A DNA stretch of 44,532 nt from Escherichia phage vB_EcoP-CC1: the sequence record OX457022, one strand, 5' to 3'. A program made the translations under genes and the position numbers. Below, piece after piece: positions 15,571 to 43,705 of the stretch. Every line of letters begins with the position of its first letter. Within the stretch, counting starts at the first letter, position 1. The notes beneath the pieces were generated by a model, which saw only the letters and a list, made by a program, of their open reading frames with translations, was not told the origin of the DNA and ran no database searches.

Positions 15571-15588
15571 TGTCTCACATGTGAGACA
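15571..15588. repeat. 18-bp perfect palindrome TGTCTCACATGTGAGACA
   Basis: 16 nt after stop of 980-aa gene; member of palindrome family; flanked by AAGG...CCTT. Confidence 0.9.
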
Positions 15589-15621
15589 TGCCTTTATGAA
15601 TGACACTGACTAGGAGGTAAC

Positions 15622-18600
15622 ATGGTTGATAGTATTAACCAAAACTGGGTGGCGGTGACTCAACGCAAGTTACCGCCTACCTTCTCTCAAATTGCTGAAG
15701 CTGAGCGTAAGGCTGAAGCCCAGAGAGCTAATGATAAAGTGTTTCAAACAGCATTAGAAAGTGAGTGGGCTTTATATGGCGGACAACGTGCCTATGAACG
15801 CCACACTACAGAGTTTGCTGAACAAGAAGGCTATGAAGTGCCTGAGTCAACTAAGGATGAGTTATCCAAGTTGTATGGGTATGAAATAGCGCAAGACATA
15901 GTTAAGAATGTAAAGTCTCCAGAAGAGTTGCAATTCCGTATGTCTAATGCTGCTGCTGATAAAGACAGAGCAGACATCTTAGCACGTAATGGTTTCACGG
16001 GTTTCAGCGCGCAGATTGCTGCTGGCATCCTTGACCCTGTAGGTTGGGCTGCATCCTTAGTGGCTGCGCCTGTAGCGGGTGCTGTCAAAGTAGGTAGGCT
16101 AGGTAGGATTATCAAGACGGCTGCCTTATCAGGTGCTGAAAATGCTGCATTAGAAGCTATACTTGCACAAGGTGATTACCAGCGAGGGGTTGATGATGTA
16201 CTGGCTGCTGCCGGATTTGGTATGATTATGGGCGGCACTATTGGTGCTGCAACCAGAGAGCGCATAGCCAGTGCTGGTTCTCGTACAGCGGCAGAACGAG
16301 CAGATGCTGTAGTTGATGACTTGGACACTGTAGTAAAAGGTGCTGATGAATTTGACTCGTCTGCGGCTCGTGCTGTACGTGAAGCTATGGAATATGACGC
16401 GTATATGGCAGCGCGTAATTACGAACCACTTCGTGCAAGAGAGGTAGATGCAGACATGGCGATTCTGTCTCACACAGACAATTTGAAAGCCAATGCATCG
16501 GTAAGGATGAGTGCTAGTGAGAAGGGGCAACTGAAGAAGCAGATACGTCAGCTTGAAGCAGAAGCAGCAACACTTAAAGGGAAGAAGATAGACACTGTAG
16601 CGGAAGCTGCGGCTGCTAAGGGTGCACCTAAATCTGCTGCTGACAGATTAGATTTGGATGTTCAGAAGAAAGCATTAGCACGTAGATTTGATGAACCACT
16701 GGCAGACTTACAAGCGCGTCTTGATGAGTTGAATGCTAAATTGTCTCGTGTAAACAATGTAGGCAAAGCCAAGGAAGAGCTTAAGAGATTCTCATCGCTA
16801 TCTCGTGAAGAGCAAATAAAGGAGTTAGGTCTAGACGCACCAGTGCGCAAGGTAGAGATGACCCGTGCCGTGCGAGATGCAATTGACGCAATCCGTGCCG
16901 AGCGTAAGAAGACGCCTACCGAAATACATGCTGAACAAGTCGCAGAAGATGCAATTAAGCAAAGGGCAGACGACTCTGTTGGTGCTAAACGTGTTGAAGG
17001 TTCAGAGATTGCAGGTGAACAGTTTGACCTATCTAAAAACATGGAAGAACTTATGGATGACTTGGCACGAGAAGCATACCAGTCAGAGGTGCGGCCTATT
17101 AATCTTAAGGGTTTAGGTTCAGTGTCTTCTGTGATTCTTAACTCAGAGAATCCTGTGTTCCGAGGCCTAGGTCTTCGTCTGCTTGAAAATGCTCAAGGTG
17201 GTGCATATCAAGGTAAGACAGCTTCTATCTTATCAGATGTGTATGGCAACCTTATTCGTCATGCAGAACGTAACAGATACAATGATGGCTTCTCTCAGTT
17301 CATCAAAGATAATAACCTACGTGCGGTAGACTATCTTAACCCTGCAACGACAAGGGATTTCAATAATCAGATTTATACAGCAATTGTTCGTGGCATACCA
17401 GAAGATACACCTCGTGGTGTTAAACTGGCAGCCGAAGGTATTGCAGATAAGCTCAAGAAAGCACTGGAGATTCGTAAGCAAGCAGGTGAGCGAGGCTTCG
17501 AGGATGTGCAATCTGCTAAAGATTATATTCCCGTTATCTACGATGGTATCAAGATCACAGAGGCAGTTAACAAGTTAGGTAGTAGTGAAGCTGTCATTCA
17601 CTTGCTATCTAAAGGGTATCAGACAGGCAAGTACAAACTTGGCAAGAAAGCTGCTGATGCACTAGCCAAAGTTCAGTATATTCGCGCATCTGACTCCACC
17701 CTCTCTAGTCGTGTTGCATTCGATAGGGTGGTATCCCAGCAGCAGCAGGCTCAATTGATTGAGGATCTGAAGAAAGCAGGAGTACCAGACCATATCATTG
17801 ATAATTTCATTGAAGGTACGGAATTAGCAGAAATGGCTGAATCGGTATCCAATCGAGCTAAAGCTAGTATGGGTATTAATACGCAAGCCGAATATGGCGG
17901 TTTGAAGGTGCAGGATTTGCTTAATACAAACGTAGGCGAGCTAGCTGAGAACTACGGCAAAGAGGCAGCAGGCGGTGCTGCATTAGCTGCCATGGGTTTC
18001 CCCACTCGCCAGTCTGTGCTGAATGCGATAGATGCCGCAGAACGCGCAGGTCGTAATATGGCGGGGTCAAATGCTAAGGCAATCAAACAGCTTAGGGCTG
18101 AGGCAGAAATGCTCAGAGATGCCGTTAAGCTCATTTACGGCAACACTATTGACGCCGACCCTAACTCTGGAATTGTCAGGGGCACTCGACGTGTCCGTGA
18201 GATTACAGGCTTGTTACGATTGGGTCAAATGGGCTTCGCTCAGATACCAGAACTGGCACGTGCAATCTCTAAGATGGGATTAGGTACTGTGCTGAAGTCC
18301 ATACCTGCCACGAAGTTCTTACGTTCAAGGGCGGCTCGTAAGGGAGGAACAGCTCAAGGTGAATTACTTGAACCTGAACTGCGAGAAATGGAGGAACTCT
18401 TAGGCTATATCGGGGAAGATAACTGGCTTACAGGGTGGAACGTCCGTCATGATGAGTTCGGAGAAACTGCTGATAACCTAGGTAAGCTGTCTGCTATTAT
18501 TGATAACGGATTAGCTATGGGTAGTAGAATCAACACAATACTCTCTGGATTTAAAGCAGTACAAGGTGGTTCAGAGAAAATTGTAGCTCGCTCTATCAAT

Positions 18601-19425
18601 AAGAGATTAAAGCAGCACTTGATGGGTGAGAGACAATTACCTAAAGCAGACCTTGAAGAAGTAGGCCTAAGTGAAGATGTCATGAAAAGACTTAAGCGTC
18701 ACTTTGATGACAACCCTCTGTACGCTGAGTACAATGGAGAAAAAGTTCGTATGCTGAACTTTGATGCTATGGAGCCAGACCTGAGAGAGACAGTGGGTGT
18801 TGCTGTGCGAAGAATGTCAGGCCGTCTTATTCAACGTAACTTCATTGGCGATGAAGGTATCTGGATGAATAAATGGTGGGGTAAGGCATTAACGCAGTTT
18901 AAGTCATTCTCTATTGTCTCTATTGAGAAACAGCTAATCCATGATTTACGAGGTGATAAGATTCAGGCTGCACAGATACTTGCATGGTCTACTTTACTAG
19001 GTTATGCATCTTATGCACTACAGATGCAGATGCAAGCGATTGGTAGGGAGGATAGAGACAAGTTCTTGAGGGATAAGTTTGACACACAGAACATCGCTAT
19101 GGGTGTCTTTAATAAACTTCCACAAGTTGCAGGCTTTGGTTTAGCTGGTGATGCTTTGGCAACCTTTGGCCTAATGCCAGACTCCATGATGCAAGCACCG
19201 GGACGCATGGGTTTCCGTCAGCAAGGCTTTGGGGATTTGGTAGCAGGTGCTGGTGTAATAAGTGATACAGTTAATTTGTCACAAGCACTGGTTAAGTATG
19301 CCAGTGGAGACGATGATGTCTCTACGAGGCAGTTGGTAGACAAGGTTCGTCGCCTTGTTCCTTTGGCAAATACTATTGGTGTGGGTCAGATGACTAAAGC
19401 CAGTGTAGATTTATTGGAGGATTGA
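15622..19425 (+). CDS. internal virion protein (gp16-like, large ejection protein)
   Basis: 1267 aa, third internal-core gene, RBS AGGAGG; size close to T7 gp16. Confidence 0.75.
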   Translation: MVDSINQNWVAVTQRKLPPTFSQIAEAERKAEAQRANDKVFQTALESEWALYGGQRAYERHTTEFAEQEGYEVPESTKDELSKLYGYEIAQDIVKNVKSPEELQFRMSNAAADKDRADILARNGFTGFSAQIAAGILDPVGWAASLVAAPVAGAVKVGRLGRIIKTAALSGAENAALEAILAQGDYQRGVDDVLAAAGFGMIMGGTIGAATRERIASAGSRTAAERADAVVDDLDTVVKGADEFDSSAARAVREAMEYDAYMAARNYEPLRAREVDADMAILSHTDNLKANASVRMSASEKGQLKKQIRQLEAEAATLKGKKIDTVAEAAAAKGAPKSAADRLDLDVQKKALARRFDEPLADLQARLDELNAKLSRVNNVGKAKEELKRFSSLSREEQIKELGLDAPVRKVEMTRAVRDAIDAIRAERKKTPTEIHAEQVAEDAIKQRADDSVGAKRVEGSEIAGEQFDLSKNMEELMDDLAREAYQSEVRPINLKGLGSVSSVILNSENPVFRGLGLRLLENAQGGAYQGKTASILSDVYGNLIRHAERNRYNDGFSQFIKDNNLRAVDYLNPATTRDFNNQIYTAIVRGIPEDTPRGVKLAAEGIADKLKKALEIRKQAGERGFEDVQSAKDYIPVIYDGIKITEAVNKLGSSEAVIHLLSKGYQTGKYKLGKKAADALAKVQYIRASDSTLSSRVAFDRVVSQQQQAQLIEDLKKAGVPDHIIDNFIEGTELAEMAESVSNRAKASMGINTQAEYGGLKVQDLLNTNVGELAENYGKEAAGGAALAAMGFPTRQSVLNAIDAAERAGRNMAGSNAKAIKQLRAEAEMLRDAVKLIYGNTIDADPNSGIVRGTRRVREITGLLRLGQMGFAQIPELARAISKMGLGTVLKSIPATKFLRSRAARKGGTAQGELLEPELREMEELLGYIGEDNWLTGWNVRHDEFGETADNLGKLSAIIDNGLAMGSRINTILSGFKAVQGGSEKIVARSINKRLKQHLMGERQLPKADLEEVGLSEDVMKRLKRHFDDNPLYAEYNGEKVRMLNFDAMEPDLRETVGVAVRRMSGRLIQRNFIGDEGIWMNKWWGKALTQFKSFSIVSIEKQLIHDLRGDKIQAAQILAWSTLLGYASYALQMQMQAIGREDRDKFLRDKFDTQNIAMGVFNKLPQVAGFGLAGDALATFGLMPDSMMQAPGRMGFRQQGFGDLVAGAGVISDTVNLSQALVKYASGDDDVSTRQLVDKVRRLVPLANTIGVGQMTKASVDLLED

Positions 19426-24880: not shown

Positions 24881-24881
24881 T

Positions 24882-29475: not shown

Positions 29476-30092
29476 CTGAGGGAATCCGTCTTCGACGGGC
29501 AGGGCTGATGTACTCCTTGTACTAGCTTAGTAGTACACAAGGGCTGGCCTTTTGTTTTGCCATGTACTAGCAAGGTGGAACGCTGGAGAGCGCCTAGGAC
29601 GGCCTAGGGATGGGCTTAGTGGTGGACAAGGTGATTGCCTTAGTGAAGCCTCTTAGTGCATTCCTGAGGCCATTCAGGGCGTTTATGAGATATTGACAGG
29701 GTGTGCGTGGGTGGGCTATCTGTTCGTTTCGTTCACTCCGCTTGCGCTACGTTCACTCGCTCACGTGTACCTTAGGTTGTTCCTTGATGGATAGCTTAGG
29801 TTAGCCTTAGTGGACTACCTTAGTTATAACCTTAGTGCTTATCTTAGTAATAGCTTAGTAATGTACCTTAGTAAGTCTTAGTGTCTTCTCTTAGTGATTG
29901 CACATGCAAGCATGTAAGATGCCATTAGGTCGCGGTCGGTAGACCGCTAAAGAAAGAGAATAGTAATAAGATGCAGTAGGAGGAACACCAGAAACCTAGC
30001 CAACCTAACCTATCCTAGCTCTGTATCTATTGCTTTTCCTTAGTCTAACATGTGAGACAACCTAGATTTATCTTAGTGATGATAGCTTAGTG

Positions 30093-30820: not shown

Positions 30821-30913
30821 GATGGTAGCTTCTTAGTCTGGATAGGTTAAACCTAGGGGATTCTCTTGAGTCTCCTATAATGTAACCTAACTAACTAAAT
30901 GAGGATTAATAAC

Positions 30914-31703: not shown

Positions 31704-32627
31704 ATGACTACTGAAAACACCCTCCTGTCTGTTCGTGAAGCTGCAACCGCTGAGATCAAGCAACACTTAGACAATATCGGCACTTCTTACATCAAAGTTG
31801 GCGCTTGTCTTAATGAGTTACGCGGTGACTTTGAAGGTCAAAAAGACTTTTTGGCTTATGTAGAATCAGAATTTGGAATCAAGAAAGCACAATGTTACAA
31901 GCTGATGAGTGTAGCCCGTGTCTTTGAAGGCGATGATCGCTTTAAAGGCGTGGCGATGCGTGTAATGCTGGCACTTGTTCCTTTCGCTGATGAAAATATC
32001 ATCATGGAGAAAGCCGCAGAACTTGCCGCAGCGGGCAAGCTGGACACTAATGCCGTAAATGCCCTGATTGATCCTAAGAAAGAGACAAAGGCCGAGACGG
32101 TACAATCTAAGGCTGAGGCGGTAAAACCGCAGGAGAATGCGACTGAGGCCGCAGAAACTATGCAAGGACATGCGACCTTTGAGGATTTCATCTTAGAGAA
32201 GGCGAAAGAGGAATTACAAAGTGTGCCGCCAGTAAGTGAGTCGGGTAACGACGAATCCGCACCGTGGGAAGATGAAAGCAAGCCGGAAGCGCCAAAGGCC
32301 GCGCCACTGGATAACACGGCTAACACGGAGAACGCCGCTATGTCTGGCCTACTGGCACAAATTAAGGCACTGACTGAGCAATTACAGGCAGCTAACGACC
32401 GCATCGCCGCCCTAACCAGTGCACGGGAAGGTAAGAAAGCGGCTGCGCCTATGCTTCCGCAGTTTAAATCCTCTTGCTTCTACGCTCGCTTAGGCTTGAG
32501 CGCCGAGGAAGCAACGAAGAAAACAGCAGTGAATAAGGCACGCCGTGAACTGGTTAAACTAGGGTATGGTGAAGGTCATGAGGCATGGCCTTTGATCTCT
32601 GAGGCAGTAGAAGAATTAACTAAGTAA
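31704..32627 (+). CDS. hypothetical early protein (307 aa), Ala/Glu/Lys-rich C-terminal half
   Basis: ATG 31704 with AAAGG upstream (ORF track start is GTG 31695); occupies slot between ocr and RNAP; no kinase motifs recognised. Confidence 0.6.
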   Translation: MTTENTLLSVREAATAEIKQHLDNIGTSYIKVGACLNELRGDFEGQKDFLAYVESEFGIKKAQCYKLMSVARVFEGDDRFKGVAMRVMLALVPFADENIIMEKAAELAAAGKLDTNAVNALIDPKKETKAETVQSKAEAVKPQENATEAAETMQGHATFEDFILEKAKEELQSVPPVSESGNDESAPWEDESKPEAPKAAPLDNTANTENAAMSGLLAQIKALTEQLQAANDRIAALTSAREGKKAAAPMLPQFKSSCFYARLGLSAEEATKKTAVNKARRELVKLGYGEGHEAWPLISEAVEELTK

Positions 32628-32690
32628 CCTTATCGGTGGCATCTTCTTAGGTGTCACCTATTAAGGTTTCTTTCACTAGGAGTAAACAAG

Positions 32691-35318
32691 ATGCAAGATC
32701 TACACGCTATTCAGCTTCAGCTTGAGGAAGAAATGTTTAACGGCGGTATTCGTCGCTTTGAAGCAGACCAACAACGCCAGATTGCATCAGGTAATGAATC
32801 CGATACGGCATGGAATCGTCGCCTGTTGTCGGAGCTTATCGCACCTATGGCGGAAGGTATTCAGGCTTATAAGGAAGCCTACGAAGGAAAGAAAGGACGC
32901 GCACCGCGTGCACTGGCCTTCATTAACTGCGTAGAGAACGAAGTGGCAGCATATATCACGATGAAGATCGTAATGGATATGCTTAACACAGATGTAACCT
33001 TGCAAGCCATAGCAATGAATGTAGCTGATCGCATCGAAGATCAAGTACGCTTCAGCAAGCTGGAAGGCCACGCCGCCAAATACTTTGAAAAAGTTAAGAA
33101 GTCACTCAAGGCAAGTAAGACTAAATCATATCGCCATGCGCACAACGTAGCGGTAGTGGCTGAGAAGTCAGTAGCTGACCGTGACACTGATTTCTCCCGC
33201 TGGGAGGCGTGGCCTAAAGATACCTTACTGCAAATCGGTATGACCTTGCTAGAAATACTGGAGAATAGCGTATTCTTCAATGGTCAACCTGTCTTCCTCC
33301 GCACCTTGCGCACTAATGGTGGCAAGCATGGTGTTTACTACTTACAGACCAGTGAGCACGTAGGGGAGTGGGTTACAGCATTTAAAGAACATGTAGCGCA
33401 ACTTAGTCCGGCCTATGCACCTTGCGTCATTCCTCCGCGCCCTTGGGTGTCCCCTTTTAATGGTGGGTTTCATACTGAGAAGGTGGCAAGTCGCATCCGT
33501 TTGGTAAAAGGCAACCGTGAGCACGTCCGTAAGCTGACCAAAAAGCAAATGCCAGCAGTTTATAAGGCTGTTAATGCTTTACAGGCCACTAAGTGGCAAG
33601 TTAACAAAGAAGTTTTGCAGGTAGTAGAAGACGTTATCCGTCTCGACCTTGGTTATGGTGTACCTTCCTTTAAACCACTCATCGACCGCGAGAACAAGCC
33701 GGCTAACCCAGTGCCGTTAGAATTTCAACACTTGCGAGGCCGCGAACTGAAGGAAATGTTAACGCCGGAACAATGGCAAGCCTTCATCAACTGGAAAGGT
33801 GAATGCACCAAGCTGTATACCGCTGAGACTAAGCGCGGAAGTAAGTCGGCGGCAACCGTTCGCATGGTAGGACAAGCGCGCAAATACAGCCAGTTTGATG
33901 CGATTTATTTCGTGTATGCACTGGATAGCCGCTCACGCGTTTATGCGCAATCTAGCACACTCTCACCGCAATCAAACGACCTAGGCAAGGCGTTACTGCG
34001 TTTTACCGAAGGGCAGCCGCTAAATAGCTCTGAGGCGCTTAAATGGTTTTTGGTGAACGGGGCGAATAACTGGGGTTGGGATAAGAAGACTTTCGACGTG
34101 CGCACCGCTAACGTACTGGACGGCGAGTTTCAAGATATGTGCCGCGACATTGCAGCGGATCCTCTGACCTTTACTCAATGGGTAAATGCCGATTCACCTT
34201 ATGGATTCCTTGCATGGTGCTTTGAGTATGCTCGTTATTTGGATGCACTGGATGAAGGAACACAAGATCAGTTTGTGACGCATTTACCTGTTCATCAAGA
34301 TGGTAGCTGTTCTGGCATCCAGCACTACAGTGCTATGCTACGCGACGAAGTGGGTGCGAAGGCGGTAAACCTTAAACCATCCGACTCGCCTCAAGATATT
34401 TATGGAGCGGTTGCGCAGGTTGTTATCCAGAAGAACTACGCCTACATGAATGCAGATGATACAGAAACTTTCACATCTGGAAGCGTAACACTTACAGGTG
34501 CAGAACTGCGCAGCATGGCTAACGCGTGGGATATGATTGGGATCACTCGCGGCTTAACCAAAAAGCCAGTAATGACCTTGCCATACGGCTCCACCCGCTT
34601 AACCTGCCGTGAATCGGTGATTGATTATATCGTTGATTTGGAAGAAAAAGAGGCGCAGAGAGCTGTTGCCGAAGGGCGGACGGCTAATCCTGTGCACCCT
34701 TTTGATAATGACCGTAAAGACTATCTGACACCTGGTGCAGCTTACAACTATATGACCGCTTTAATTTGGCCTTCTATCTCTGAGGTTGTTAAAGCGCCTA
34801 TAGTGGCGATGAAAATGATTCGCCAGCTTGCACGATTCGCAGCTAAAAGAAACGAAGGGTTAGAGTACACCTTACCCACTGGTTTCATCTTGCAGCAAAA
34901 GATAATGGCTACCGACATGCTACGCGTATCCACTTGCTTGATGGGTGAAATCAAGATGAGTCTACAGATTGAGACTGATGTAGTGGATGAAACGGCAATG
35001 ATGGGCGCTGCCGCTCCTAACTTTGTTCACGGTCATGATGCGAGTCACCTTATTCTGACTGTATGTGACCTAGTTGACAAAGGTATTACATCAATTGCAG
35101 TTATTCATGACTCTTTCGGAACTCATGCAGGCCGTACATCAGATCTTCGTGATAGCTTAAGGGCAGAAATGGTTAAGATGTATCAAGGGCGTAACGCCTT
35201 GCAGCAATTGCTGGATGAGCATGAAGAACGTTGGTTGGTGGACACTGGCATTCAAGTGCCGGAACAAGGGGAGTTTAACCTTGAAGAGATATTAGTTTCT
35301 GACTATTGTTTTGCATAA
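32691..35318 (+). CDS. single-subunit DNA-directed RNA polymerase (SP6-type)
   Basis: 875 aa; N-terminus [32 protein letters not shown] and C-terminus ending DYCFA agree with recalled SP6 RNAP; AGGAG RBS. Confidence 0.95.
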
Positions 35319-35325
35319 TATTGAT

Positions 35326-35357
35326 AGGCCATTCCTTAGGGAGTGGCCTTTTCTTTT
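35326..35357 (+). terminator. intrinsic (rho-independent-type) terminator after RNAP gene
   Basis: Stem AGGCCATTCC/GGAGTGGCCT (one G-U), loop TTAG, then TTTTCTTTT; candidate early terminator. Confidence 0.7.
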
Positions 35358-35391
35358 ACCTATTACCTGTAACATTTAATTAACATAACCG

Positions 35392-35409
35392 TGTCTCACG
35401 CGTGAGACT
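35392..35409. repeat. palindrome family member TGTCTCAC-GC-GTGAGACT
   Basis: Perfect 16-bp palindrome GTCTCACGCGTGAGAC; 2 nt upstream of promoter at 35411. Confidence 0.85.
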
Positions 35410-35410
35410 T

Positions 35411-35432
35411 ATTTACCGGACACTATAGGATA
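35411..35432 (+). promoter_or_regulatory. phage RNAP promoter class I (ATTTACCGGACACTATAGGAT), +1 G at 35428
   Basis: Family consensus with C at -11. Confidence 0.8.
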
Positions 35433-35463
35433 ACCGTCGGAGACGGAAAGAGAAGGGAAGATA

Positions 35464-35513
35464 AGGATATAAAGGAAGTAATAGGTATTAAAGGTTGTAT
35501 AGGTTTACCTAGG
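35464..35513. repeat. periodic AGG array (AGG at 35464, 35473, 35483, 35492, 35501, 35511)
   Basis: Six AT-rich (T)A(A)AGG units at 9-10 bp period between two promoters downstream of RNAP gene; candidate replication origin. Confidence 0.8.
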
Positions 35514-35572
35514 AATACTTATTACCTTCTTCCTTCCTCTTCTTACTACCTAGAGGAAGGGCAGACCTAGGT

Positions 35573-35590
35573 TGTCTCACATGTGAGACT
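35573..35590. repeat. palindrome family member TGTCTCAC-AT-GTGAGACT
   Basis: 4 nt upstream of promoter-like sequence at 35595. Confidence 0.85.
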
Positions 35591-35594
35591 TCGT

Positions 35595-35616
35595 ATTTAC
35601 CGGACAGTATAGATAA
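35595..35616 (+). promoter_or_regulatory. variant phage promoter (ATTTACCGGACAGTATAGATAAG), +1 G at 35612
   Basis: C to G change at -5 relative to family consensus; directly upstream of gp1.1-like gene. Confidence 0.45.
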
Positions 35617-35642
35617 GACTAACTTACTTTGGAGATTTAACC

Positions 35643-35771
35643 ATGCGTAACTTTGAGAAGATGACCCGTAAAGCTAACCGTTTTGACATGGAAGAAGGGC
35701 AGACGAGAGGCAAGAAGCTGAATAAACCTGTCCGTGACCGTGCATCTAAACGAGCAGCGTGGGAGTCCTAA
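35643..35771 (+). CDS. T7 gp1.1-like small basic protein
   Basis: 42 aa MRNFEKMTRKANRF...GKKLNKPVRDRASKRAAWES matches recalled T7 gene 1.1 MRNFEKMTKRSNRN...GRKLNKTKRDRSHKRSWEGQ; GGAGA RBS. Confidence 0.6.
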   Translation: MRNFEKMTRKANRFDMEEGQTRGKKLNKPVRDRASKRAAWES

Positions 35772-35774
35772 GTT

Positions 35775-37763
35775 ATGGCTATTATTCAGAACGTACCGTG
35801 CCCTGCCTGCCAAAAGAATGGACACGATAAATCCGGCAACCATCTTATGATATTTGAGGATGGCGCTGGTTACTGTAACCGTGGTCATTTCCATGATAAT
35901 GGCAAACCTTATTACCATAAGCCAGAGGGCGGCATCGAGATAACCGAATTGCCCATTACTGGCAATATCAAATACACACCTTCTCAATTCAAAGAAATGG
36001 AGAAGGAAGGGAAGATAAGCGACCCTAAGCTACGCGCCATCGCACTTGGTGGTATGCGTATGAAAGACCGTTGGGAGGTCATGAATGAGCAAGAAAGGGC
36101 AGACCAAGAAGCAGAGTGGAAACTTGATGTTGAATGGTTCCTCACGCTTAAGCGTAAGAACCTTGTTTCCCGACACATTCGCGGCGACATTTGCGCATTG
36201 TATGATGTACGTGTCGGACACGATGAAGAGGGTAGAGTCTCGCGGCATTACTATCCACGCTTCGAGAAAGGTGAGCTAGTAGGAGCTAAGTGTCGCACAT
36301 TACCTAAAGACTTTAAGTTTGGTCATTTAGGTAAACTCTTTGGTATGCAAGATCTTTTCGGGATGAATACTTTGTCTCACGTGTTAGACAAGGGAAGACG
36401 AAAGGATTGCTTGCTTATTGTTGGTGGGGAACTGGATGCGCTAGCAGCGCAGCAGATGCTCCTTGATTCTGCCAAGGGTACTAAGTGGGAAGGTCAACCT
36501 TACCATGTATGGTCTGTTAACAAAGGGGAGTCTTGCCTTGAAGAGATTGTGCAGAACCGTGAACACATCGCCCAATTCAAGAAGATTATTTGGGGCTTCG
36601 ATGGGGATGAGGTAGGGCAGAAGCAGAACCAGCAAGCGGCTCGCCTGTTCCCTGGCAAATCTTATATCCTTGAATACCCCTCTGGTTGCAAAGATGCCAA
36701 CAAGGCATTGATGGCTGGTAAAGCCAAAGAATTTGTGGATGCTTGGTTTAATGCAAAGTCATCTGATGAAGTCTTTGGTAGCCAGATTAAATCTATCGCA
36801 TCTCAAAGGGATAAGCTCAAGGCTGCACGTCCAGAACAAGGGCTGTCATGGCCTTGGCCTAAGCTAAACAAGGTAACACTGGGTATCCGTAAGAACCAGC
36901 TTATCATTATAGGTGCAGGCTCTGGTGTTGGTAAGACAGAGTTCCTCCGTGAAGTGGTAAAGCATCTCATCGAAGAACACGGTGAATCTGTAGGTATCAT
37001 TTCTACAGAAGACCCGATGGTCAAAGTGTCCCGTGCTTTTATCGGTAAGTGGATTGATAAGCGTATTGAACTACCGCCAACCAATGACCCGAAAGAAGAT
37101 GGCTACCGTGAGGTGTTCGACTATACAGAGGAAGAGGCTAATGCTGCCATTGATTATGTAGCTGATACAGGGAAGCTGTTTGTAGCTGACCTAGAGGGTG
37201 ACTATTCGATGGAGAAGGTAGAGCAAACTTGCCTAGAGTTTGAGGCTATGGGTATTTCTAATATCATCATTGATAACTTAACGGGGATTAAATTAGATGA
37301 GCGTGCTTTTGGTGGGAAGGTTGGTGCACTTGATGAATGCGTCAAACGAATTGGTACTATCAAAGACCGACATGCGGTTACGATTTTCCTTGTCTCTCAC
37401 CTTACACGCCCTCCGGCAAACCGTACCCAACACGAAGAAGGTGGCGAAGTTATCCTTTCTGACTTCCGAGGCTCAGGCGCTATCGGATTCTGGGCATCTT
37501 ACGCCTTGGGGATTGAGCGTAATACAAGAGCTGAAACGCTTGATGAACGGACTACCACGTACATCTCATGTGTCAAAGACCGCGACCAAGGTATCTACAC
37601 TGGAACCAAGGTCATGCTTAAGGGTGACATTCAAACCGGACGTTTAATGGAACCACAAGCCCGTACTAAGTCATTTGATACAGGTGAAGCAAGGCAACAA
37701 GAAGTACCTGATTTACCGGACACTATAGAAGAGACAACCTTTGACGATGAACAGGAGTTTTGA
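35775..37763 (+). CDS. DNA primase/helicase (T7 gp4-like)
   Basis: N-terminal zinc-binding CPACQKNG...GYCNRGHFHD, central primase-type region, helicase Walker A GAGSGVGKT; acidic C-terminus DDEQEF. Confidence 0.9.
   Translation: MAIIQNVPCPACQKNGHDKSGNHLMIFEDGAGYCNRGHFHDNGKPYYHKPEGGIEITELPITGNIKYTPSQFKEMEKEGKISDPKLRAIALGGMRMKDRWEVMNEQERADQEAEWKLDVEWFLTLKRKNLVSRHIRGDICALYDVRVGHDEEGRVSRHYYPRFEKGELVGAKCRTLPKDFKFGHLGKLFGMQDLFGMNTLSHVLDKGRRKDCLLIVGGELDALAAQQMLLDSAKGTKWEGQPYHVWSVNKGESCLEEIVQNREHIAQFKKIIWGFDGDEVGQKQNQQAARLFPGKSYILEYPSGCKDANKALMAGKAKEFVDAWFNAKSSDEVFGSQIKSIASQRDKLKAARPEQGLSWPWPKLNKVTLGIRKNQLIIIGAGSGVGKTEFLREVVKHLIEEHGESVGIISTEDPMVKVSRAFIGKWIDKRIELPPTNDPKEDGYREVFDYTEEEANAAIDYVADTGKLFVADLEGDYSMEKVEQTCLEFEAMGISNIIIDNLTGIKLDERAFGGKVGALDECVKRIGTIKDRHAVTIFLVSHLTRPPANRTQHEEGGEVILSDFRGSGAIGFWASYALGIERNTRAETLDERTTTYISCVKDRDQGIYTGTKVMLKGDIQTGRLMEPQARTKSFDTGEARQQEVPDLPDTIEETTFDDEQEF
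37711..37732 (+). promoter_or_regulatory. phage RNAP promoter class I embedded in primase/helicase 3' end (ATTTACCGGACACTATAGAAGAG), +1 G at 37728
   Basis: Exact consensus inside coding sequence (encodes DLPDTIEET). Confidence 0.7.
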
Positions 37764-37924
37764 TGGAAATTATTAAACCATTATTAAATATCGGCGTTGA
37801 CATCCTATTCATGCTTATGCTAGCAAACTATGCTGCACGATATGGATTCAAGCCAGCTGTGAAACTTATCGTTGCATCTGGTTTTCTTATGTCAATGTTC
37901 TTTATTGTAACACACCTTATCTAG
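37763..37924 (+). CDS. hypothetical small hydrophobic protein (53 aa)
   Basis: Below ORF-track cutoff; TGATG overlap with primase stop; two predicted hydrophobic segments. Confidence 0.35.
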   Translation: MEIIKPLLNIGVDILFMLMLANYAARYGFKPAVKLIVASGFLMSMFFIVTHLI

Positions 37925-37940
37925 TGTATTTATCAGGGCT

Positions 37941-37958
37941 TGTCTCACATGTGAGACA
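37941..37958. repeat. 18-bp perfect palindrome TGTCTCACATGTGAGACA
   Basis: 17 nt after stop of small ORF; identical to copy at 15571. Confidence 0.9.
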
Positions 37959-37996
37959 GGCTCTTATTAAGTACATTAAATAACTGGAGATTGATT

Positions 37997-38719
37997 ATGT
38001 ATAAATTAGTATTGAATGCAGGTGATTATGTTCGTAACATCAATGAAGCCTCACGTCGTTATCGTTGCCGTGGTGTGGTTAGCTATGTAAGTGAGAACAT
38101 GTACCATGTGGAGTACAGCAACGGCATTAAACAATCTTATCATAAGAAGTTAGCACATAACTACCTTGAGAAGATTGGCGAGACAAGCAATCAATGCAAG
38201 TGTGTACATGATGAGGTTTGCGATAAGTGCAAACGTCAGGCAATTAAAGCCTTTACCTTTGCGCAACGTTATGGTTCTATGTATGGTGCTGGTCACAAGA
38301 CCGTTGCAGAAGCAGCTTGGAAGACATTACAGTTTGAGCATTCAAATGGACGACGCACCACAATTAAGAAAGAGCGCCGCAATGTCATCACTGGTAAGAC
38401 TCAAAGTGAGATGATTAAGCAATGTGGCACTGCATTAGGTGTTACACAGTTCAATACACGTGCTCTAGGTAAATCTACAGGACAAGCTATGTTTAAGATT
38501 GGTGAAGCCATGATGCACCCAAATGTACCTGTGCGAATCATGGATGTTGACCATGCAATCACAGAACATGGTACAACACGGCGTGTAGTTAATAATCATT
38601 TTGCCGACACTATAGAAGATATTATCCGTAAGCAAGGATTGAAAGGTCTTCACATCTTAAATGGTGAAGAGTTGCTGTACCTTCCTATTGTTACCGAAGA
38701 AACCTACGTGAATATCTAA
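37997..38719 (+). CDS. hypothetical protein (240 aa) with Cys cluster
   Basis: GGAGA RBS 6 nt upstream of ATG 37997; CKCVHDEVCDKC cluster; between primase and DNA polymerase. Confidence 0.55.
   Translation: MYKLVLNAGDYVRNINEASRRYRCRGVVSYVSENMYHVEYSNGIKQSYHKKLAHNYLEKIGETSNQCKCVHDEVCDKCKRQAIKAFTFAQRYGSMYGAGHKTVAEAAWKTLQFEHSNGRRTTIKKERRNVITGKTQSEMIKQCGTALGVTQFNTRALGKSTGQAMFKIGEAMMHPNVPVRIMDVDHAITEHGTTRRVVNNHFADTIEDIIRKQGLKGLHILNGEELLYLPIVTEETYVNI
38588..38609 (+). promoter_or_regulatory. weak promoter-like sequence inside coding region (ATTTTGCCGACACTATAGAAG)
   Basis: Core CACTATAGAAG intact but 3 mismatches at -13, -12, -10; probably non-functional. Confidence 0.2.
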
Positions 38720-38729
38720 GGAGTTAATC

Positions 38730-38918
38730 ATGACTAAAGTATTGATTTATATGAGAGGTGCTAATAAATGCTATGCAGTTGTAGCACCTGATGGGGTCAA
38801 GCCTTACGGTACTTCAAAAGGATTAGCATTAATAGGTGCTAGTCGCAGTGCAAGTTTCCAAATGGAACTTTTTGGTCATTGGACTGAAAAAAAGAATTCC
38901 GTGAAGAGTTTAATGTAA
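38730..38918 (+). CDS. hypothetical protein (62 aa)
   Basis: AAGGAG RBS 7 nt upstream. Confidence 0.5.
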   Translation: MTKVLIYMRGANKCYAVVAPDGVKPYGTSKGLALIGASRSASFQMELFGHWTEKKNSVKSLM

Positions 38919-38939
38919 TTGGCAGCTTTATGGTGAAAC

Positions 38940-39137
38940 ATGCAAAATAAACATAGCCTTAAGATGTTTGATGGTCACGAAGACCTGCAAGCACAAATTA
39001 CCAACCAAGCCTTCCTGTTTGCACAGTTAACTATGGCTGAAGCAAAGAAGAACAGCCTTACTCGTGAGCAGATTATCAAGGAAGGTAGCCGTGGTGCTAC
39101 TCGTCGTACCAAGAACCACAGAAGTGGTGCTCGCTAG
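38940..39137 (+). CDS. hypothetical protein (65 aa)
   Basis: ORF only; weak RBS. Confidence 0.35.
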   Translation: MQNKHSLKMFDGHEDLQAQITNQAFLFAQLTMAEAKKNSLTREQIIKEGSRGATRRTKNHRSGAR

Positions 39138-39153
39138 TCGATAAGTCAAGGGT

Positions 39154-39171
39154 TGTCTCACGTGTGAGACA
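39154..39171. repeat. palindrome family member TGTCTCAC-GT-GTGAGACA
   Basis: 17 nt after preceding stop; flanked by AAGGG...CCTTT. Confidence 0.9.
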
Positions 39172-39201
39172 GCCTTTCATCATATTGATTGGAGGTGCAT
39201 T

Positions 39202-39309
39202 ATGCCACGTGATTATGATTCTGATTGGGACTACTATGACTCAATGAATCCAAAACCCGAACGTTCAGATGATTACTACGAAACAGAGGCAATGTATGAA
39301 AACTATTGA
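39202..39309 (+). CDS. hypothetical small acidic protein (35 aa)
   Basis: Below ORF-track cutoff; GGAGGTG RBS; Asp/Tyr-rich; overlaps DNA polymerase start. Confidence 0.4.
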   Translation: MPRDYDSDWDYYDSMNPKPERSDDYYETEAMYENY

Positions 39310-41842
39310 TTGGAAGAAGGAAGCAGAAGGCCGCATCCTCGTCATGGACGCAGAAGCTAAAGGTCTGCTTGATGCTATCCGCTACGGTCATCGTGAAGAT
39401 GTACACATCATTTGCTGCATGGACTTGCTCACCACTGAGGAGTTCCTCTTCTTCGACCCATATGAGATGCGTGACCCTGAAGCAAGAGAACGCCTGAAGG
39501 AGTGGGAAGGCCATCAAGATGGTGACTTGGTTGACGGTGTTAACTTCCTGAAACACTGTGAAGCTATCGTGTCACAGAACTTCCTAGGGTATGACGGCCT
39601 CCTTTTTGAGAAAGCCTTCCCTGATATCTGGAAAGGTTTTAACTATACCGAAAGGCGCGGCAAGGGCAGACTCCGTGCCGACCTGTGTCCTGTGCGAGTC
39701 ATGGACACGCTGGTGATGAGCCGCCTGTTAAACCCCGATAGACGCCTTCCTCCGCAAGCATATGCCAAAGGTATGGGTAACGTCGCCCCTCATTCAATTG
39801 AGGCGCACGGCATCCGTATAGGACGCTATAAGCCGGAGAATGAGGACTGGTCTAAACTAACTGACCACATGGTTCACCGTGTCCGCGAGGACGTGGCAAT
39901 CGGTCGTGACCTTTTCCTGTGGCTGTACAATGGAGAGTGGACGGAGCATAAACGCCGTGGCGTGAATAAACGCACTGGCCTAGGCATTGAGACAGCCTTC
40001 CACATGGAGTCTATTGTGGCGCTGGAGATGAGCCGTCAGGCAGAGCGTGGATTCCGTCTGGATATTGACAAAGCACTAGCGCGATGCGAAGAACTGGACG
40101 CTAAGATTGATGAGACAGTCGCAGCGTTCCGCCCTCACATGCCTATGCGTATCAAGTCTAAACCTTTTAAACCGGAAGAAAAGAATGAAGTATGCCAACG
40201 CGCAAATGAGTATGGAGCTAGCAACAATATACCTACTGTCCTTGACCCCTCACACTTTCTTCATGCCGAGAGACGAGGAGATCGCAAGACAGTATGGAGT
40301 GTCACTACTAAGTCTGGTGATTGGTCGGCTAGCGTCAAGAAAGACTTTCCTCACCTTAGAGGAAACCGTAATGACACGCCAAGCATCAAGTGGATTGGCG
40401 CTTACTCGCCTGTTACTTTCGAAGAGATTCCCTTGGGTAACAGGGATACAGTTAAGCAAGTGCTCTATGATTATGGATGGAAAGGTGTTGAATTTAACGA
40501 TACCGAGCAAGCGCATCTCGATGAGCATGGCGTATTACCCAAACCTTGGAGTGGAAAGATAAATGAGAAATCCCTTACTTTATGGCAAGAAAGAGCCGCA
40601 CGTGAAGGTAAAACAGTACCAGATTGGTGCTTGGGTATCGCTGCATGGTACATACTCGTATCCCGTCGTGGTCAGATCCTCAACCGTGGTGACGTTGAAG
40701 CCTTCGATCAGAAGGGGGCGTGGCCTTCGCAAGCTGGTGTACGAAAGTGTCGCGGCCTTATACCTGTAGCCTTTAACAAGGAATTAGGAATCAATGCGCA
40801 ACAATACTACGAGAGGTATGGGTATTGGCCTACGTCTGACAAGGATGACGGAGAGTGGCGTGTGCCAGCTATTGCTATTAGTATTGGCACTTCTACGTTC
40901 CGTATGCGTCATCGCAATGTGGTTAATATTCCTGCCCGTGGCTTGTATCCTTTACGTGATTTATTCATAGCAGGTAAAGGTAAGCTAATCCTTGGTTGTG
41001 ATGGTGCAGGTCTTGAACTACGTGTACTTTCTCACTTCATGAATGACCCTGAGTACCAAGATATTGTACTGCATGGCGATATACATACTCATAACCAGAT
41101 GAAGGCGGGTCTTCCTAAGCGTGATATGGCGAAGACATTTATATATGCCTTCCTTTACGGCTCTGGTATAGCTAACCTTGCAGCAGTGTGCGGTGTTACT
41201 GAGGAAGAAATGAAGGAAGTTGTGGCAAGATTCGAGATTGAATTACCATCCCTTGCACGTCTTCGTGAGAATGTTATCGCACAAGGCAACAAGTTTGGAT
41301 ACTTACAAGCACCTGACGGGCATTGGGGTCGCATCCGTATGTCTGGTGGAGAACTTAAAGAGCACACTATGCTTAATGTATTACTCCAAATGACTGGCTC
41401 TTTGTGTATGAAATACGCATTGGTCAAAGCGTTTGCAGTGATGCGCAAGGAAGGTGTGGCCTTAGATAGTATGGGACACCCTTGTGGTGTAGCTAACGTG
41501 CACGATGAAATCCAGATGGAAGTACCTGAAGAAGAGGTATTGTATCTTAACTACGACCTACCTTTCACCTTAGAGGGGTTTGAAACAGAGAAGGCTGCTG
41601 TGAAAGCAGTATTCGATGCAGAGGAGAAACGTGTTCATGTGGATTCTGAAGGACGTATGTGGTCTGCTGCAAATCTCATTAGTGTTGATGCTGCTGCTGG
41701 TGTACTTCATTGCCAGCGTCGTTATCACCGCGCAGGGCATATCATTGCCGACGCCATGACTTGGGCTGGTCAGTATCTGAAGATGCGTTGCCCGATGGCA
41801 GGCGAGTATAAGATTGGCGCAAGCTGGAAGGAAACGCACTAG
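39296..41842 (+). CDS. DNA polymerase (family A, T7 gp5-like)
   Basis: 848 aa from ATG 39296 (ORF track 39269); polymerase-type motifs incl. HDEIQMEV; position after primase-helicase. Confidence 0.9.
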   Translation: MKTIDWKKEAEGRILVMDAEAKGLLDAIRYGHREDVHIICCMDLLTTEEFLFFDPYEMRDPEARERLKEWEGHQDGDLVDGVNFLKHCEAIVSQNFLGYDGLLFEKAFPDIWKGFNYTERRGKGRLRADLCPVRVMDTLVMSRLLNPDRRLPPQAYAKGMGNVAPHSIEAHGIRIGRYKPENEDWSKLTDHMVHRVREDVAIGRDLFLWLYNGEWTEHKRRGVNKRTGLGIETAFHMESIVALEMSRQAERGFRLDIDKALARCEELDAKIDETVAAFRPHMPMRIKSKPFKPEEKNEVCQRANEYGASNNIPTVLDPSHFLHAERRGDRKTVWSVTTKSGDWSASVKKDFPHLRGNRNDTPSIKWIGAYSPVTFEEIPLGNRDTVKQVLYDYGWKGVEFNDTEQAHLDEHGVLPKPWSGKINEKSLTLWQERAAREGKTVPDWCLGIAAWYILVSRRGQILNRGDVEAFDQKGAWPSQAGVRKCRGLIPVAFNKELGINAQQYYERYGYWPTSDKDDGEWRVPAIAISIGTSTFRMRHRNVVNIPARGLYPLRDLFIAGKGKLILGCDGAGLELRVLSHFMNDPEYQDIVLHGDIHTHNQMKAGLPKRDMAKTFIYAFLYGSGIANLAAVCGVTEEEMKEVVARFEIELPSLARLRENVIAQGNKFGYLQAPDGHWGRIRMSGGELKEHTMLNVLLQMTGSLCMKYALVKAFAVMRKEGVALDSMGHPCGVANVHDEIQMEVPEEEVLYLNYDLPFTLEGFETEKAAVKAVFDAEEKRVHVDSEGRMWSAANLISVDAAAGVLHCQRRYHRAGHIIADAMTWAGQYLKMRCPMAGEYKIGASWKETH

Positions 41843-42026
41843 TGGATAGATTAGATATTGTTTGCTTGTTCTTTACCTTCTTTCTTGTCTTTCTTATGCT
41901 TGCTTGTTATGGAAGTATTCAGGTAAATATACCTGATGAAGAGGAAGGATACGACTGAGTTATACTCAAGGTCACTTACGAGTGGCCTTTATGAATAACT
42001 TACTCCTACTTATTTTGTCTAACATG

Positions 42027-42048
42027 ATTTACTGGACACTATAGAAGG
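42027..42048 (+). promoter_or_regulatory. phage RNAP promoter class I (ATTTACTGGACACTATAGAAGG), +1 G at 42044
   Basis: Exact consensus downstream of DNA polymerase gene. Confidence 0.85.
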
Positions 42049-42103
42049 AAAGCCTAGGTAATCTAGGTTTATAAGGTAGTATAGGTAATTAAGTAAATAT
42101 AGG
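42046..42103. repeat. periodic AGG array (AGG at 42046, 42056, 42065, 42074, 42083, 42101)
   Basis: AT-rich TAGG/TAAGG units at 9-10 bp period in leader of 125-aa gene. Confidence 0.8.
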
Positions 42104-42113
42104 AGATATAAAT

Positions 42114-42491: not shown

Positions 42492-42511
42492 TTACTGGAC
42501 ACTATAGAACA
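42490..42511 (+). promoter_or_regulatory. phage RNAP promoter (AATTACTGGACACTATAGAAC), +1 G at 42507
   Basis: One mismatch from class I consensus (A for T at -16); overlaps stop codon of preceding gene. Confidence 0.7.
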
Positions 42512-42653
42512 ATAGGTCGGCTTAGTTCGGCCTATGATTGTAAAGTGTTGAACCTTATTGTGCATCTTGCACAACCCGATACCGTATCGGGCTTTCTAGT
42601 GAGTACATGCTTGTGCTCAGTACAAAGCTAACTGACAATAGGAGACTAAATAA

Positions 42654-43460
42654 ATGGCACGTGGTGATTTTGATTTTGGTGCTCAAGTTACTAAAGCTGA
42701 AGGTAAAGTATTTAAGAACCCAGAAGTAGGTGATCATGAAGCAGTTATCTCTGGCATCATTCATGTTGGTTCCTTCCAAGACATCTTTAAGAAAGGTAAT
42801 ACCACTGAAGTTAAGAAGCCAGCAAACTTTGTTCTGGTTAAGATTATCCTGATGGGTGACGATGACAAGAACGAAGATGATTCTCGCATGGAACAATGGA
42901 TGGCTGTGCCTCTGAAGTCTGGTGATAAGGCAACACTGACTAAGTTCCTGAATGCAGTTGACCCTAAAGAATTGCTTGGTGGCTTCGATGACTTCATTGG
43001 TGAATGCCTGACTGCAACCATGGTTGGCTCTGGTGATAAGAATGACGATGGCTCATTCAAGTATGTTAACTGGAAGGGCTTTGGTGGTATGCCGGAAAAG
43101 CTGAAGAAACTTGTAATTGCTCAGGTTGAAGAAGAAGGTCTGTCTATGACAGGTCACATTACCTTTGACAAGCTGACCAAAGAAATCCTTGATGATATTC
43201 CTGCTAACTTGGTACGCCAATACTTCCTGAATGAAACACCTCGTGGTAAGAACCTGTCTGTTGCTGGTTCTCACGTAGAAGAAATCATTAAAGCTGCTCG
43301 TGAAGAAGACCCAGAATGGAAGAAGGCTAAGAAGAAAGATGATGAGGATGCTACTCCAGCTAATCGTAAGTCTCTGGATACTGGCGAGTCTGTTCCGCAG
43401 GAAGTGCCTGAAGCAGAAGACGCACCTGCACCGGAAATGGATGAAGACGCGGAATACTAA
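42654..43460 (+). CDS. hypothetical protein, possible ssDNA-binding protein (gp2.5-like by features)
   Basis: 268 aa in replication module; acidic C-terminal tail ending in aromatic residue (EMDEDAEY) like the T7 gp2.5 tail; RBS TAGGAGA. Confidence 0.5.
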   Translation: MARGDFDFGAQVTKAEGKVFKNPEVGDHEAVISGIIHVGSFQDIFKKGNTTEVKKPANFVLVKIILMGDDDKNEDDSRMEQWMAVPLKSGDKATLTKFLNAVDPKELLGGFDDFIGECLTATMVGSGDKNDDGSFKYVNWKGFGGMPEKLKKLVIAQVEEEGLSMTGHITFDKLTKEILDDIPANLVRQYFLNETPRGKNLSVAGSHVEEIIKAAREEDPEWKKAKKKDDEDATPANRKSLDTGESVPQEVPEAEDAPAPEMDEDAEY

Positions 43461-43469
43461 GGAGGGATG

Positions 43470-43688
43470 ATGAAGGTACAAATCGTAACCCTGCACTGCA
43501 AGAAGGGCATTACAACCCTTGGCGGAAACACTTTTCACTCCTTCTCTGAAGGGGAGACATATTCTGACCTGCACTACATCTGGCGCGATGGGCAGCACGT
43601 GGTGAACTACAGCGACCCCGCTACAGGGAAACGCCACGGCGTATCTCTTCCGGCGCACGACATTGCTCAGGTGAACACAGTTTTATAA
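43470..43688 (+). CDS. hypothetical protein (73 aa)
   Basis: Strong RBS TAAGGAGGG. Confidence 0.5.
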   Translation: MKVQIVTLHCKKGITTLGGNTFHSFSEGETYSDLHYIWRDGQHVVNYSDPATGKRHGVSLPAHDIAQVNTVL

Positions 43689-43689
43689 A

Positions 43690-43705
43690 GTCTCACATGT
43701 GAGAC
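43690..43705. repeat. palindrome family member GTCTCAC-AT-GTGAGAC
   Basis: Starts 2 nt after preceding stop; 15 nt upstream of promoter 43721. Confidence 0.85.

Follow-up and report, generated by a model that had tools for sequence, protein, structure and literature searches.

The 44,532-nucleotide genome of Escherichia phage vB_EcoP-CC1 (sequence record OX457022; this whole stretch is called the window below) carries at several of its gene junctions a short palindrome with conserved arms and a variable two-nucleotide centre. This element raises the question of whether it acts in RNA, as a processing or termination hairpin, or in duplex DNA, as the site of a dimeric protein. The genome is of the Vectrevirus type in the K1E/K1-5/SP6 group (Autographiviridae, Molineuxvirinae), 44.5 kb in size, complete and circularly permuted, with its genes on the + strand throughout. 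Phage vB_EcoP-CC2 is 100% identical over the 9.2 kb compared (window 32691-41842); R4596, K1E and K1-5 share 97-90% identity with the window, SP6 about 76%, and relatives from Proteus, Pectobacterium and Erwinia 65-70%. The phage promoter ATTTACYGGACACTATAG, which we take to resemble the textbook SP6 promoter, occurs ten times in the window. In the deposited records of SP6, K1E, K1-5, PP1 and Era103 the palindrome sites bear no annotated feature, and Rfam 15 gave no match at or above the gathering score on either strand of the whole window. Literature searches with the motif strings returned noise only, and the SP6-group literature covered, which does not extend to the 2004 SP6 and K1-5 genome papers, mentions software-predicted terminators only.

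The palindrome family is genuine and has been maintained throughout the phage subfamily. In the window, TGTCTCACNNGTGAGACA has three exact matches (0.00 expected) and eight matches at up to three mismatches (0.31 expected), a number reached by none of 100 shuffles; these eight sites recover the six strong and two degenerate copies described in the initial annotation. Both tests that had been set in advance came out in favour of the family, as its frequency stands far above the shuffled expectation and it is kept in close and distant relatives. SP6-like genomes and contigs yielded a table of 206 members of the family, and the window sites were folded on both strands. The members, spread across Molineuxvirinae, follow the consensus (T/A)GTC-YM-AC-RY-GT-KR-GAC(A/T). 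The conserved arms and the AT, GT or GC centre were correctly described. In relatives, all 177 distinct members have a purine followed by a pyrimidine at the centre (177/177), a rule that is symmetric under reverse complement. Seven of the eight coordinates stand as first given, the 18-mer assigned to 43690 beginning at 43689. The statement that most copies start 2-20 nt after a stop codon applies to four of the eight only: 15571, 37941 and 39154 each begin 16 nt past a stop codon and 43689 begins directly past one, while 35392 lies 73 nt past the stop of the RNA polymerase (RNAP) gene, 35573 and 30042 are in non-coding DNA, and 36373 is within the primase/helicase open reading frame (ORF). 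Three copies had been placed immediately upstream of phage promoters, and 35392, 35573 and 43689 are indeed 1, 4 and 14 nt from ATTTACYGGACACTATAG.

The family falls into two classes (Table 1). The extended copies (15571, 37941 and 39154; class A) have the complementary AAGG…CCTT-type flanks that had been attributed to several copies; the core-only copies (30042, 35392, 35573, 36373 and 43689) do not. The proposal of processing hairpins is well supported for the three extended copies and fails for the five core-only copies, in which a stem of 6-7 bp is accompanied by unpaired flanks and no strand asymmetry. In every core-only copy the 2-nt spacing of the centre is strict. A half palindrome at 42016, where the adjoining promoter appears to stand in for the right arm, was overlooked in the initial annotation. 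Decayed copies are present at two slots that are intact in relatives, namely X2 (AACCTAACACGTTGGACA, 2748-2765, within ORF 2501-3001), which still has its CCAAC-type right arm and was likewise overlooked, and X1 (CCGCTAACGTACTGGACG, 34105-34122, within the RNAP gene).

Table 1. Palindrome copies and RNase III-type hairpins in the window (CM, covariance model; a point in the strand column marks features without an assigned strand).
Feature	Position	Strand	Remarks
Core TGTCTCACATGTGAGACA, class A slot A3	15571..15588	+	Exact match; between internal-virion-protein genes; 22 distinct orthologues
Core TGTCTCACATGTGAGACA, class A slot A1	37941..37958	+	Exact match; after primase/gp9.5; 25 distinct orthologues
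Core TGTCTCACGTGTGAGACA, class A slot A2	39154..39171	+	Exact match; upstream of DNA polymerase region
Core-only TGTCTCACGCGTGAGACT, slot P1	35392..35409	.	1 nt upstream of promoter 35411-35428; downstream of host-type terminator after RNAP gene
Core-only TGTCTCACATGTGAGACT, slot P2	35573..35590	.	4 nt upstream of promoter 35595-35612
Core-only AGTCTCACATGTGAGACA, slot P3	43689..43706	.	Adjoins stop of ORF 43467-43688; 14 nt upstream of promoter 43721-43738
Core-only AGTCTAACATGTGAGACA, slot L	30042..30059	.	Non-coding left end, upstream of early sigma-70-type promoters
Core-only TGTCTCACGTGTTAGACA, slot G	36373..36390	.	Within primase/helicase ORF 35775-37763, codons L-S-H-V-L-D-K
Half palindrome TGTCTAACATG	42016..42026	.	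Adjoins phage promoter 42027
RNase III-type hairpin around 15571 core	15552..15608	+	Lower stem includes upstream TAG stop; predicted cut 15597|15598
RNase III-type hairpin around 37941 core	37922..37978	+	CM 84.8 bits; predicted cut 37967|37968
RNase III-type hairpin around 39154 core	39135..39191	+	CM 78 bits; predicted cut 39180|39181
RNase III-type hairpin without palindrome	41956..42002	+	CM 19.8 bits, E = 0.036, full-length; immediately ahead of promoter 42027
RNase III-type hairpin without palindrome	32627..32667	+	CM 16.5 bits, E = 0.31, full-length; weak call

Each extended copy sits in a 57-nt hairpin, of which the core forms the apical 7-bp stem and tetraloop. The hairpins consist of a lower stem of 9-11 bp that takes in the stop codon of the upstream gene, a 2x3 internal loop (UC on the 5' side, UAU or CAU on the 3' side), and a 13-bp upper stem extended by G·U-rich pairs. 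The distance from the internal loop up to the core apex is 13 bp at each of the three slots. The hairpin at 15552..15608, for example, combines a UC/UAU internal loop and a 13-bp upper stem with a CAUG loop. All 73 distinct class A sequences are more stable on the + strand, with means of -25 to -27.5 kcal/mol compared with -15 to -18 kcal/mol on the - strand; for 37922..37978 the fold energies are -31.5 and -20.1 kcal/mol, respectively, and 25 of 25 orthologues show the same preference. The consensus structures pair 98.7% of alignment cells at slot A2 and 99.3% at slot A3, as opposed to 31-46% in both when the partners are slid. Each of these two slots has eight doubly compensated pairs and a covariation score that 0 of 500 shuffles reached. 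At slot A2, a U·G pair flanking the core is invariant (26/26).

These hairpins closely resemble the RNase III processing sites of phage T7, for which R0.3, R0.5, R1, R1.1, R1.3, R3.8, R4.7, R6.5, R13 and R18.5 served as the comparison set and the T7 genome was folded at the ten cleavage coordinates. Both groups share the flank consensus ACUCAAGG…CCUUUAUGA, with (A)CUCAAGG on the 5' side, and the flanks of the 15571 copy (UACUCAAGGUU…UGCCUUUAUGAAU) match R0.5 and R18.5: R0.5 reads GACUCAAGGUCGC…GUGGCCUUUAUGAUUAUCAC, and the window UACUCAAGGUU-core-UGCCUUUAUGAAUGACAC. The UC/UAU internal loop, a total helix of about 22 bp and specificity for the mRNA sense are also held in common. In structure, the 2x3 loop is placed as in R0.3, R0.5, R1.1, R4.7 and R18.5, and the four pairs above it (AAGG/CCUU) are identical. 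The distal-box position coincides with the U·G/U-A step at the foot of the core, and its register differs from that of R1.1. T7 sites similarly lie between cistrons and often near phage promoters, R4.7 adjoining phi4.7 and R1.1 lying between phi1.1A and phi1.1B. A covariance model (R1) built from 71 SP6-group hairpins only, and run unfiltered on the window and on T7, scored the three extended sites at 77-85 bits (76.7 for 15552..15608). On the + strand of T7 it recovered R18.5 (30.8 bits, E 2.9e-5), R0.3 (1.1e-4), R0.5 (8.7e-4), R4.7 (2.1e-3), R6.5 (0.043), R1.1 (0.46) and R1 (8.1). The two groups differ at the apex, which in T7 is a stem of the GGUCRYUC…GAGUGGCC type and in the SP6 group a perfect 18-nt DNA palindrome common to all copies. 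A stand-alone palindrome without the RNase III scaffold, near promoters or in ORFs, occurs in the SP6 group and was not found in T7.

Because flank sequence, architecture and covariance-model matches all agree with the T7 sites, we conclude with considerable confidence that the copies at 15571, 37941 and 39154 correspond, in the SP6 group, to the RNase III processing sites of T7, an element of a known kind whose cleavage is predicted. Substrates of E. coli RNase III span about two helical turns, coaxial stacking being allowed, and have base-pair determinants in a proximal and a distal box, and an internal loop directs a single cut that leaves a protective 3' hairpin (PMC1540722). The length rule, about 20-22 bp, fits the three extended copies and is failed by the five core-only copies. 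The five T7 coordinates that were checked all coincide with the step …CCUUUAU|GA… on the loop's 3' side, and by homology to this position host RNase III would make a single cut in each hairpin at the sites predicted in Table 1. The hairpin would then stay as the protective 3' end of the upstream message, and the new 5' end would lie about 25-30 nt ahead of the next start codon. With these three sites and their explicit predicted cuts, the classic RNase III processing system of T7 would reach into the SP6/K1E group. Their recognition may aid the engineering of therapeutic K1-capsule phages and is of use for annotation, as one site is mislabelled in a public record: in R4596 (L005, 8643-8666) the orthologue of the 37941 copy is entered as a 'putative transcriptional terminator' from ARNOLD. 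On the present evidence the feature is instead the top of an RNase III-type hairpin and has no U-run. The fixed distance of the conserved apex from the presumed cleavage loop (here 13 bp) is reminiscent, by analogy only, of the yeast Rnt1p substrates. Rnt1p is an RNase III guided by an apical tetraloop, in which it differs from bacterial RNase III; we know of no bacterial RNase III that reads apical loops.

The core itself is a separable module, because the window also contains RNase III-type hairpins without it (Table 1). The hairpin at 41956..42002 has an apical stem, GGUCACU/AGUGGCC, that is nearly identical to T7 R1.1, and the same element is present in SP6 and K1-5. The weaker candidate at 32627..32667 adopts a UC/UAU internal-loop fold just upstream of the RNAP gene, at the T7 R1 position. 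Conversely, Era103 from Erwinia has hairpin scaffolds without a core at two slots, yet retains seven core-only copies. If the core-only copies are read as duplex DNA, as proposed below, the palindrome would be the primary element, recruited to form the apex of an RNase III hairpin where it lies in a transcribed intergenic spacer. A weak third hairpin without the palindrome was seen at 30831-30900, ahead of an ocr-like gene at the T7 R0.3 position.

What the core does where it stands alone is the second part of the question. The core-only copies are not RNase III substrates, as their stem is too short. Their folds leave the flanks unpaired and differ little between strands (-14.5 and -14.2 kcal/mol). 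At slot P1, 22 orthologues show neither flank pairing nor strand asymmetry, and the model R1 aligns only at its positions 33-48. In 38 of 51 promoter-slot sequences the two outermost core bases do not match as a pair. Nevertheless, the slots are orthologous in phages of Escherichia, Salmonella, Klebsiella, Pectobacterium, Proteus and Erwinia. They lie at the left end ahead of the early promoters, upstream of both phage promoters that follow the RNAP gene and of a single middle promoter, and within the primase, RNAP and ligase-region ORFs. At these slots the core is kept while the flanks diverge. Wherever the core accompanies a promoter, in every genus and regardless of promoter sequence, it lies 0-17 nt upstream, and the pair of core and promoter is also carried jointly by E. 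coli prophages. Slot L is orthologous in K1-5, SP6, VR702, PP1, PM93 and Era103 and adjoins a phage promoter in PM93 and Era103; its half-sites are of two different types and would give an A·G clash in a hairpin. Slot G, in the primase ORF, is present in 23 of 23 distinct orthologues. There, the third positions of four core codons are invariant, compared with about 1.1 bits in the flanks, and the remaining two core codons switch exactly with the core type. Because the slots are orthologous, the core is kept amid diverging flanks and the primase third positions are invariant, we regard the core-only copies as functional and under selection. This selection is tentatively taken to act on their nucleotide sequence, not on hairpin stability.

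The variation among cores indicates how they might be read. Arms of the state CCAAC/GTTGG are found in Klebsiella, Pectobacterium, Proteus and some Escherichia phages, CTAAC/GTTGG in SP6, and CTCAC/GTGAG in the window, K1E, K1-5 and Era103. Nearly all copies in one genome carry one state; the mixed genomes are K1-5, with CCAAC/GTTGG at slot A2 (the 39154 locus), and contig L077 at slot A1. Combinations of the middle positions that cannot pair are absent from class A (0/73), but occur in 8 of 65 intergenic core-only copies (class B) and in 14 of 37 ORF copies. At slot G, the K1E-type phages have changed TCC-AAC…TTG to TCT-CAC…TTA, by two synonymous changes together with an Asn-to-His replacement, which fits the new arm at the cost of a base pair. 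A fourth change would have created a TGA stop, so the switch was followed as far as the reading frame permits. Since pairing clashes are tolerated, slot G took part in the switch, the purine-pyrimidine centre is symmetric and strand asymmetry is absent, a reading by half-sites in duplex DNA is favoured. On this evidence the leading reading, held at somewhat less than even odds, is that the core-only copies are duplex-DNA sites of a two-fold symmetric factor, itself probably phage-encoded, which would read them just upstream of phage-RNAP promoters. The combined explanation, RNase III hairpins in one context and duplex-DNA sites in the other, we hold to be about evenly poised between right and wrong.

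The properties of the stand-alone core are those common to operators of dimeric proteins, namely 8-bp two-fold half-sites, a strict 2-bp spacing, a strand-symmetric centre, tolerance of limited half-site variants and several dispersed copies per genome. The SP6-group palindromes differ from such operators in that promoter spacing is not fixed and no cognate domain was detected in the phage. The observation that the palindrome is kept near promoters, at the genome end and within essential genes in at least six genera, with states that flip in concert genome-wide, appears as the signature of an unrecognised cis-element and a putative reader in a well-studied phage lineage.

Several points weigh against this explanation. 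Pfam and PHROGs searches of 20 early and middle ORFs detected no helix-turn-helix or other nucleic-acid-binding domain in a potential reader, distant folds being outside their scope; a sequence search of the PDB returned no relatives for gp10 or gp16. The 0-17 nt between core and promoter position -17, varying across slots and lineages, is awkward for a regulator that acts by contact, and the extended copies A1-A3 have no promoter within 200 nt. Proteus phage PM93 has three class A copies with identical arms around a 3-nt centre, which a rigid DNA-binding dimer would not tolerate and which hints at a constraint on the arms at the RNA level or of another kind. Among core-only copies, U·G-type intermediates (CTAAC/GTTGG) outnumber C·A combinations by 14 to 7, a weak lean towards RNA. 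Moreover, perfect DNA palindromes may stay symmetric through templated quasi-palindrome correction without any reader. For the hairpin part, the ten T7 cleavage coordinates are those that we take to be given by Dunn and Studier (1983). The PM93 hairpins (L007, 10508-10584, 11584-11664 and 32097-32175) have arms TGTCCAAC/GTTGGACA with centres ACT, AGT and ACT, and the promoter-adjoining copy at the left end of PM93 (355-372) keeps the 2-nt centre, so the 3-nt change looks concerted and confined to one class.

It is conceivable, and we would give this a modest but real chance, that all copies act as RNA, a 7-bp stem and CRYG loop being read by a phage or host RNA-binding factor or nuclease; extended copies would then tune or position RNase III, and core-only copies would mark or protect the 3' region of the upstream transcript before the next promoter. 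The fixed 13-bp height of the apex in three class A slots, the invariant U·G pair at slot A2, the U·G intermediate in SP6, the PM93 arms kept with a 3-nt loop and the 14 to 7 ratio all speak for such a reader, as does the position of core-only copies at gene or operon ends, always upstream of the next promoter and never downstream. Against it, only read-through would transcribe the left-end copy and P1, which are situated ahead of every early promoter or past a terminator. The two strands of core-only copies fold alike, C·A, A·G and C·U clashes are tolerated midway along their 7-bp stem, and slot G accepted a pair-breaking amino-acid change; a hairpin of 6-7 bp and about -7 kcal/mol would protect a 3' end poorly, and the same ORF searches found no RNA-binding protein. 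A role of the core-only copies as single-strand DNA or cruciform elements of replication origins is improbable. Here, negative supercoiling or R-loops at the adjacent promoter would extrude the palindrome, and GTC, the T7-type primase triplet, would serve priming or helicase loading. P1 and P2 do bracket the first phage promoter beyond the RNAP gene, where T7 has its primary origin, and the left-end copy corresponds to a T7 secondary origin near phiOL (T7 origin positions being in part as we presume them); GTC/GAC are the invariant outer core positions, and the core invariably precedes the promoter, on the side where transcription generates negative supercoils. However, extrusion is inefficient for an 18-bp palindrome with a 2-nt centre, GTC would be paired within the hairpin so formed, and the in-ORF and class A copies are away from promoters.

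Slightly less probable still is that the core-only copies are functionless remnants or by-products of RNase III hairpins, homogenised by gene conversion or templated quasi-palindrome correction. Palindromes self-correct by template switching, copies are homogeneous within each genome, and the mixed genomes (K1-5 slot A2, L077 slot A1) are what recombination would give. Yet the same slots are kept across genera that are about 65-70% identical and whose flanks diverge freely, the synonymous sites of the ORF copy at slot G are frozen, and Era103 lost the core from its hairpins but retained its core-only copies; the decay of X1 (34105) and X2 (2748) in the window implies that loss is possible where a copy is not needed. 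The initial annotation had also offered pausing or termination by the phage RNAP. That the palindromes are terminators or pause sites for a phage or host polymerase we consider very improbable, for all that the copies stand at gene ends and ARNOLD called the 37941 orthologue in R4596. No copy is followed by a U-run, the downstream sequences being UAUGAAU, UAUUAAG, CAUCAUA and UAUUUAC, and termination would be harmful amid the DNA-metabolism operon or within the primase and RNAP ORFs. The hairpin-plus-U-run element that does follow the RNAP gene (about 35326-35350, annotated in R4596) has another sequence. Intrinsic termination was therefore rejected, as the stems lack a U-run.

For the favoured duplex-DNA reading, candidates for the symmetric factor were considered in turn. 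The specificity loop of the RNAP was rejected, as CCAAC cores occur with at least five promoter types and CTCAC cores with both K1E-type and Era103-type promoters. A host transcription factor was rejected as well: an informal comparison with operators as we presume them to be (LexA, CRP, LacI family, GntR family, DeoR, RutR, SlmA and MatP) gave no convincing match, and the core type differs among phages of one host. The K1E-type arms differ by one base each from what we take to be the canonical parS arms (TGTTTCAC/GTGAAACA). The ancestral CCAAC type is unlike parS; the resemblance to parS/ParB is a lead and not membership. Exact TGTCTCACNNGTGAGACA clusters do lie between ParA-like and ParB-like genes in two contigs (L185, 2060-2160; L190, 963-1020 and 3003-3020), where they are probably parS-type centromere sites. 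These are high-GC contigs of 85 and 129 kb, unrelated to the phage. A parS identity for the phage palindromes was rejected, as the ParA/ParB-flanked contigs are unrelated and no ParB was detected in the phage.

A scan of public viral contigs for the core also returned dozens of lambdoid prophage fragments with one common module. Its carriers are DLP12/SfIV-like lambdoid E. coli prophages, in about 64 viral contigs (for example L032, 780-1030; L224, 3560-3970; L142, 7284-7358). The module consists, in order, of a T7-promoter-like stretch (CAATACAACTCACTAATGGAGAG), the palindrome extended by G·U pairing and, after 13 nt, a perfect K1E-type promoter (ATTTACTGGACACTATAGAAGG), followed by a strong ribosome-binding site, a 40-codon ORF (MFHSTNHQAV…) and then iss/bor, a serum-resistance gene. 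Among 5426 complete E. coli genomes, 535 (about 10%) carry the 89-nt module, in each case without annotation. Its alleles, 47 of the CCAAC type (TGTCCAAC..GTTGGACA) and 17 of the CTCAC type (TGTCTCAC..GTGAGACA), differ by the same four-position core switch, with no intermediates, and none is found in SP6-like contigs. Direct import of the alleles from phage was rejected, as the module-specific flank is confined to prophage-type contigs (64/64); switching in situ or short-patch exchange with A1-type phage hairpins are alternatives for their origin. One reading, which we put forward as rather unlikely, is that the stand-alone palindrome is the site of a type-specific SP6-group factor with at least two specificities, CCAAC and CTCAC, acting with phage-RNAP promoters or origins, and that prophages captured the palindrome and K1E-type promoter as a unit, in both specificity alleles, so that iss/bor and the 40-codon ORF would be wired to the RNAP of an infecting K1E/K1-5-type phage. 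If true, infection would throw the unit as a switch, which might act as a trap in defence or abortive infection; if functional, the module would tie a virulence-associated gene or a small ORF to lytic-phage infection.

Further structures accompany the promoters. An inverted copy of promoter positions -13 to -5 (GGTGTCCAGTATTTACTGGACAC) upstream of promoter 43721 forms a 10-bp hairpin (43711-43734). Because this copy covaries with promoter type in PP1 (CCGCCC/GGGCGG), L021 and L012, it constitutes a second conserved structure at slot P3. The origin-like region 35319-35640 contains, in order, the host-type terminator, the P1 core and its promoter, a 170-nt long hairpin that is purine-rich on one side and pyrimidine-rich on the other, and the P2 core and its promoter. 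The minimum-free-energy fold of a read-through RNA pairs the P1 palindrome with that of P2 (z = -2.9), and the mutual complementarity of any two palindrome copies could in principle favour their uniformity. In Era103 (L223, 7021-7073), a promoter flanked by two palindromes is truncated (TGTCTCACACGTGAGACA gc ATTAACCACCCAG ga AGTCTCACACGTGAGACA), and the second palindrome takes the place of its initiation region. Finally, gp18 (43793-44161, 122 aa), which is conserved in the SP6 group, has an acidic C-terminal tail whose last residue is Phe (…SEEEEF). Such tails dock on DNA polymerase in T7 gp2.5 and gp4, and by analogy gp18 is likely a replisome accessory protein.

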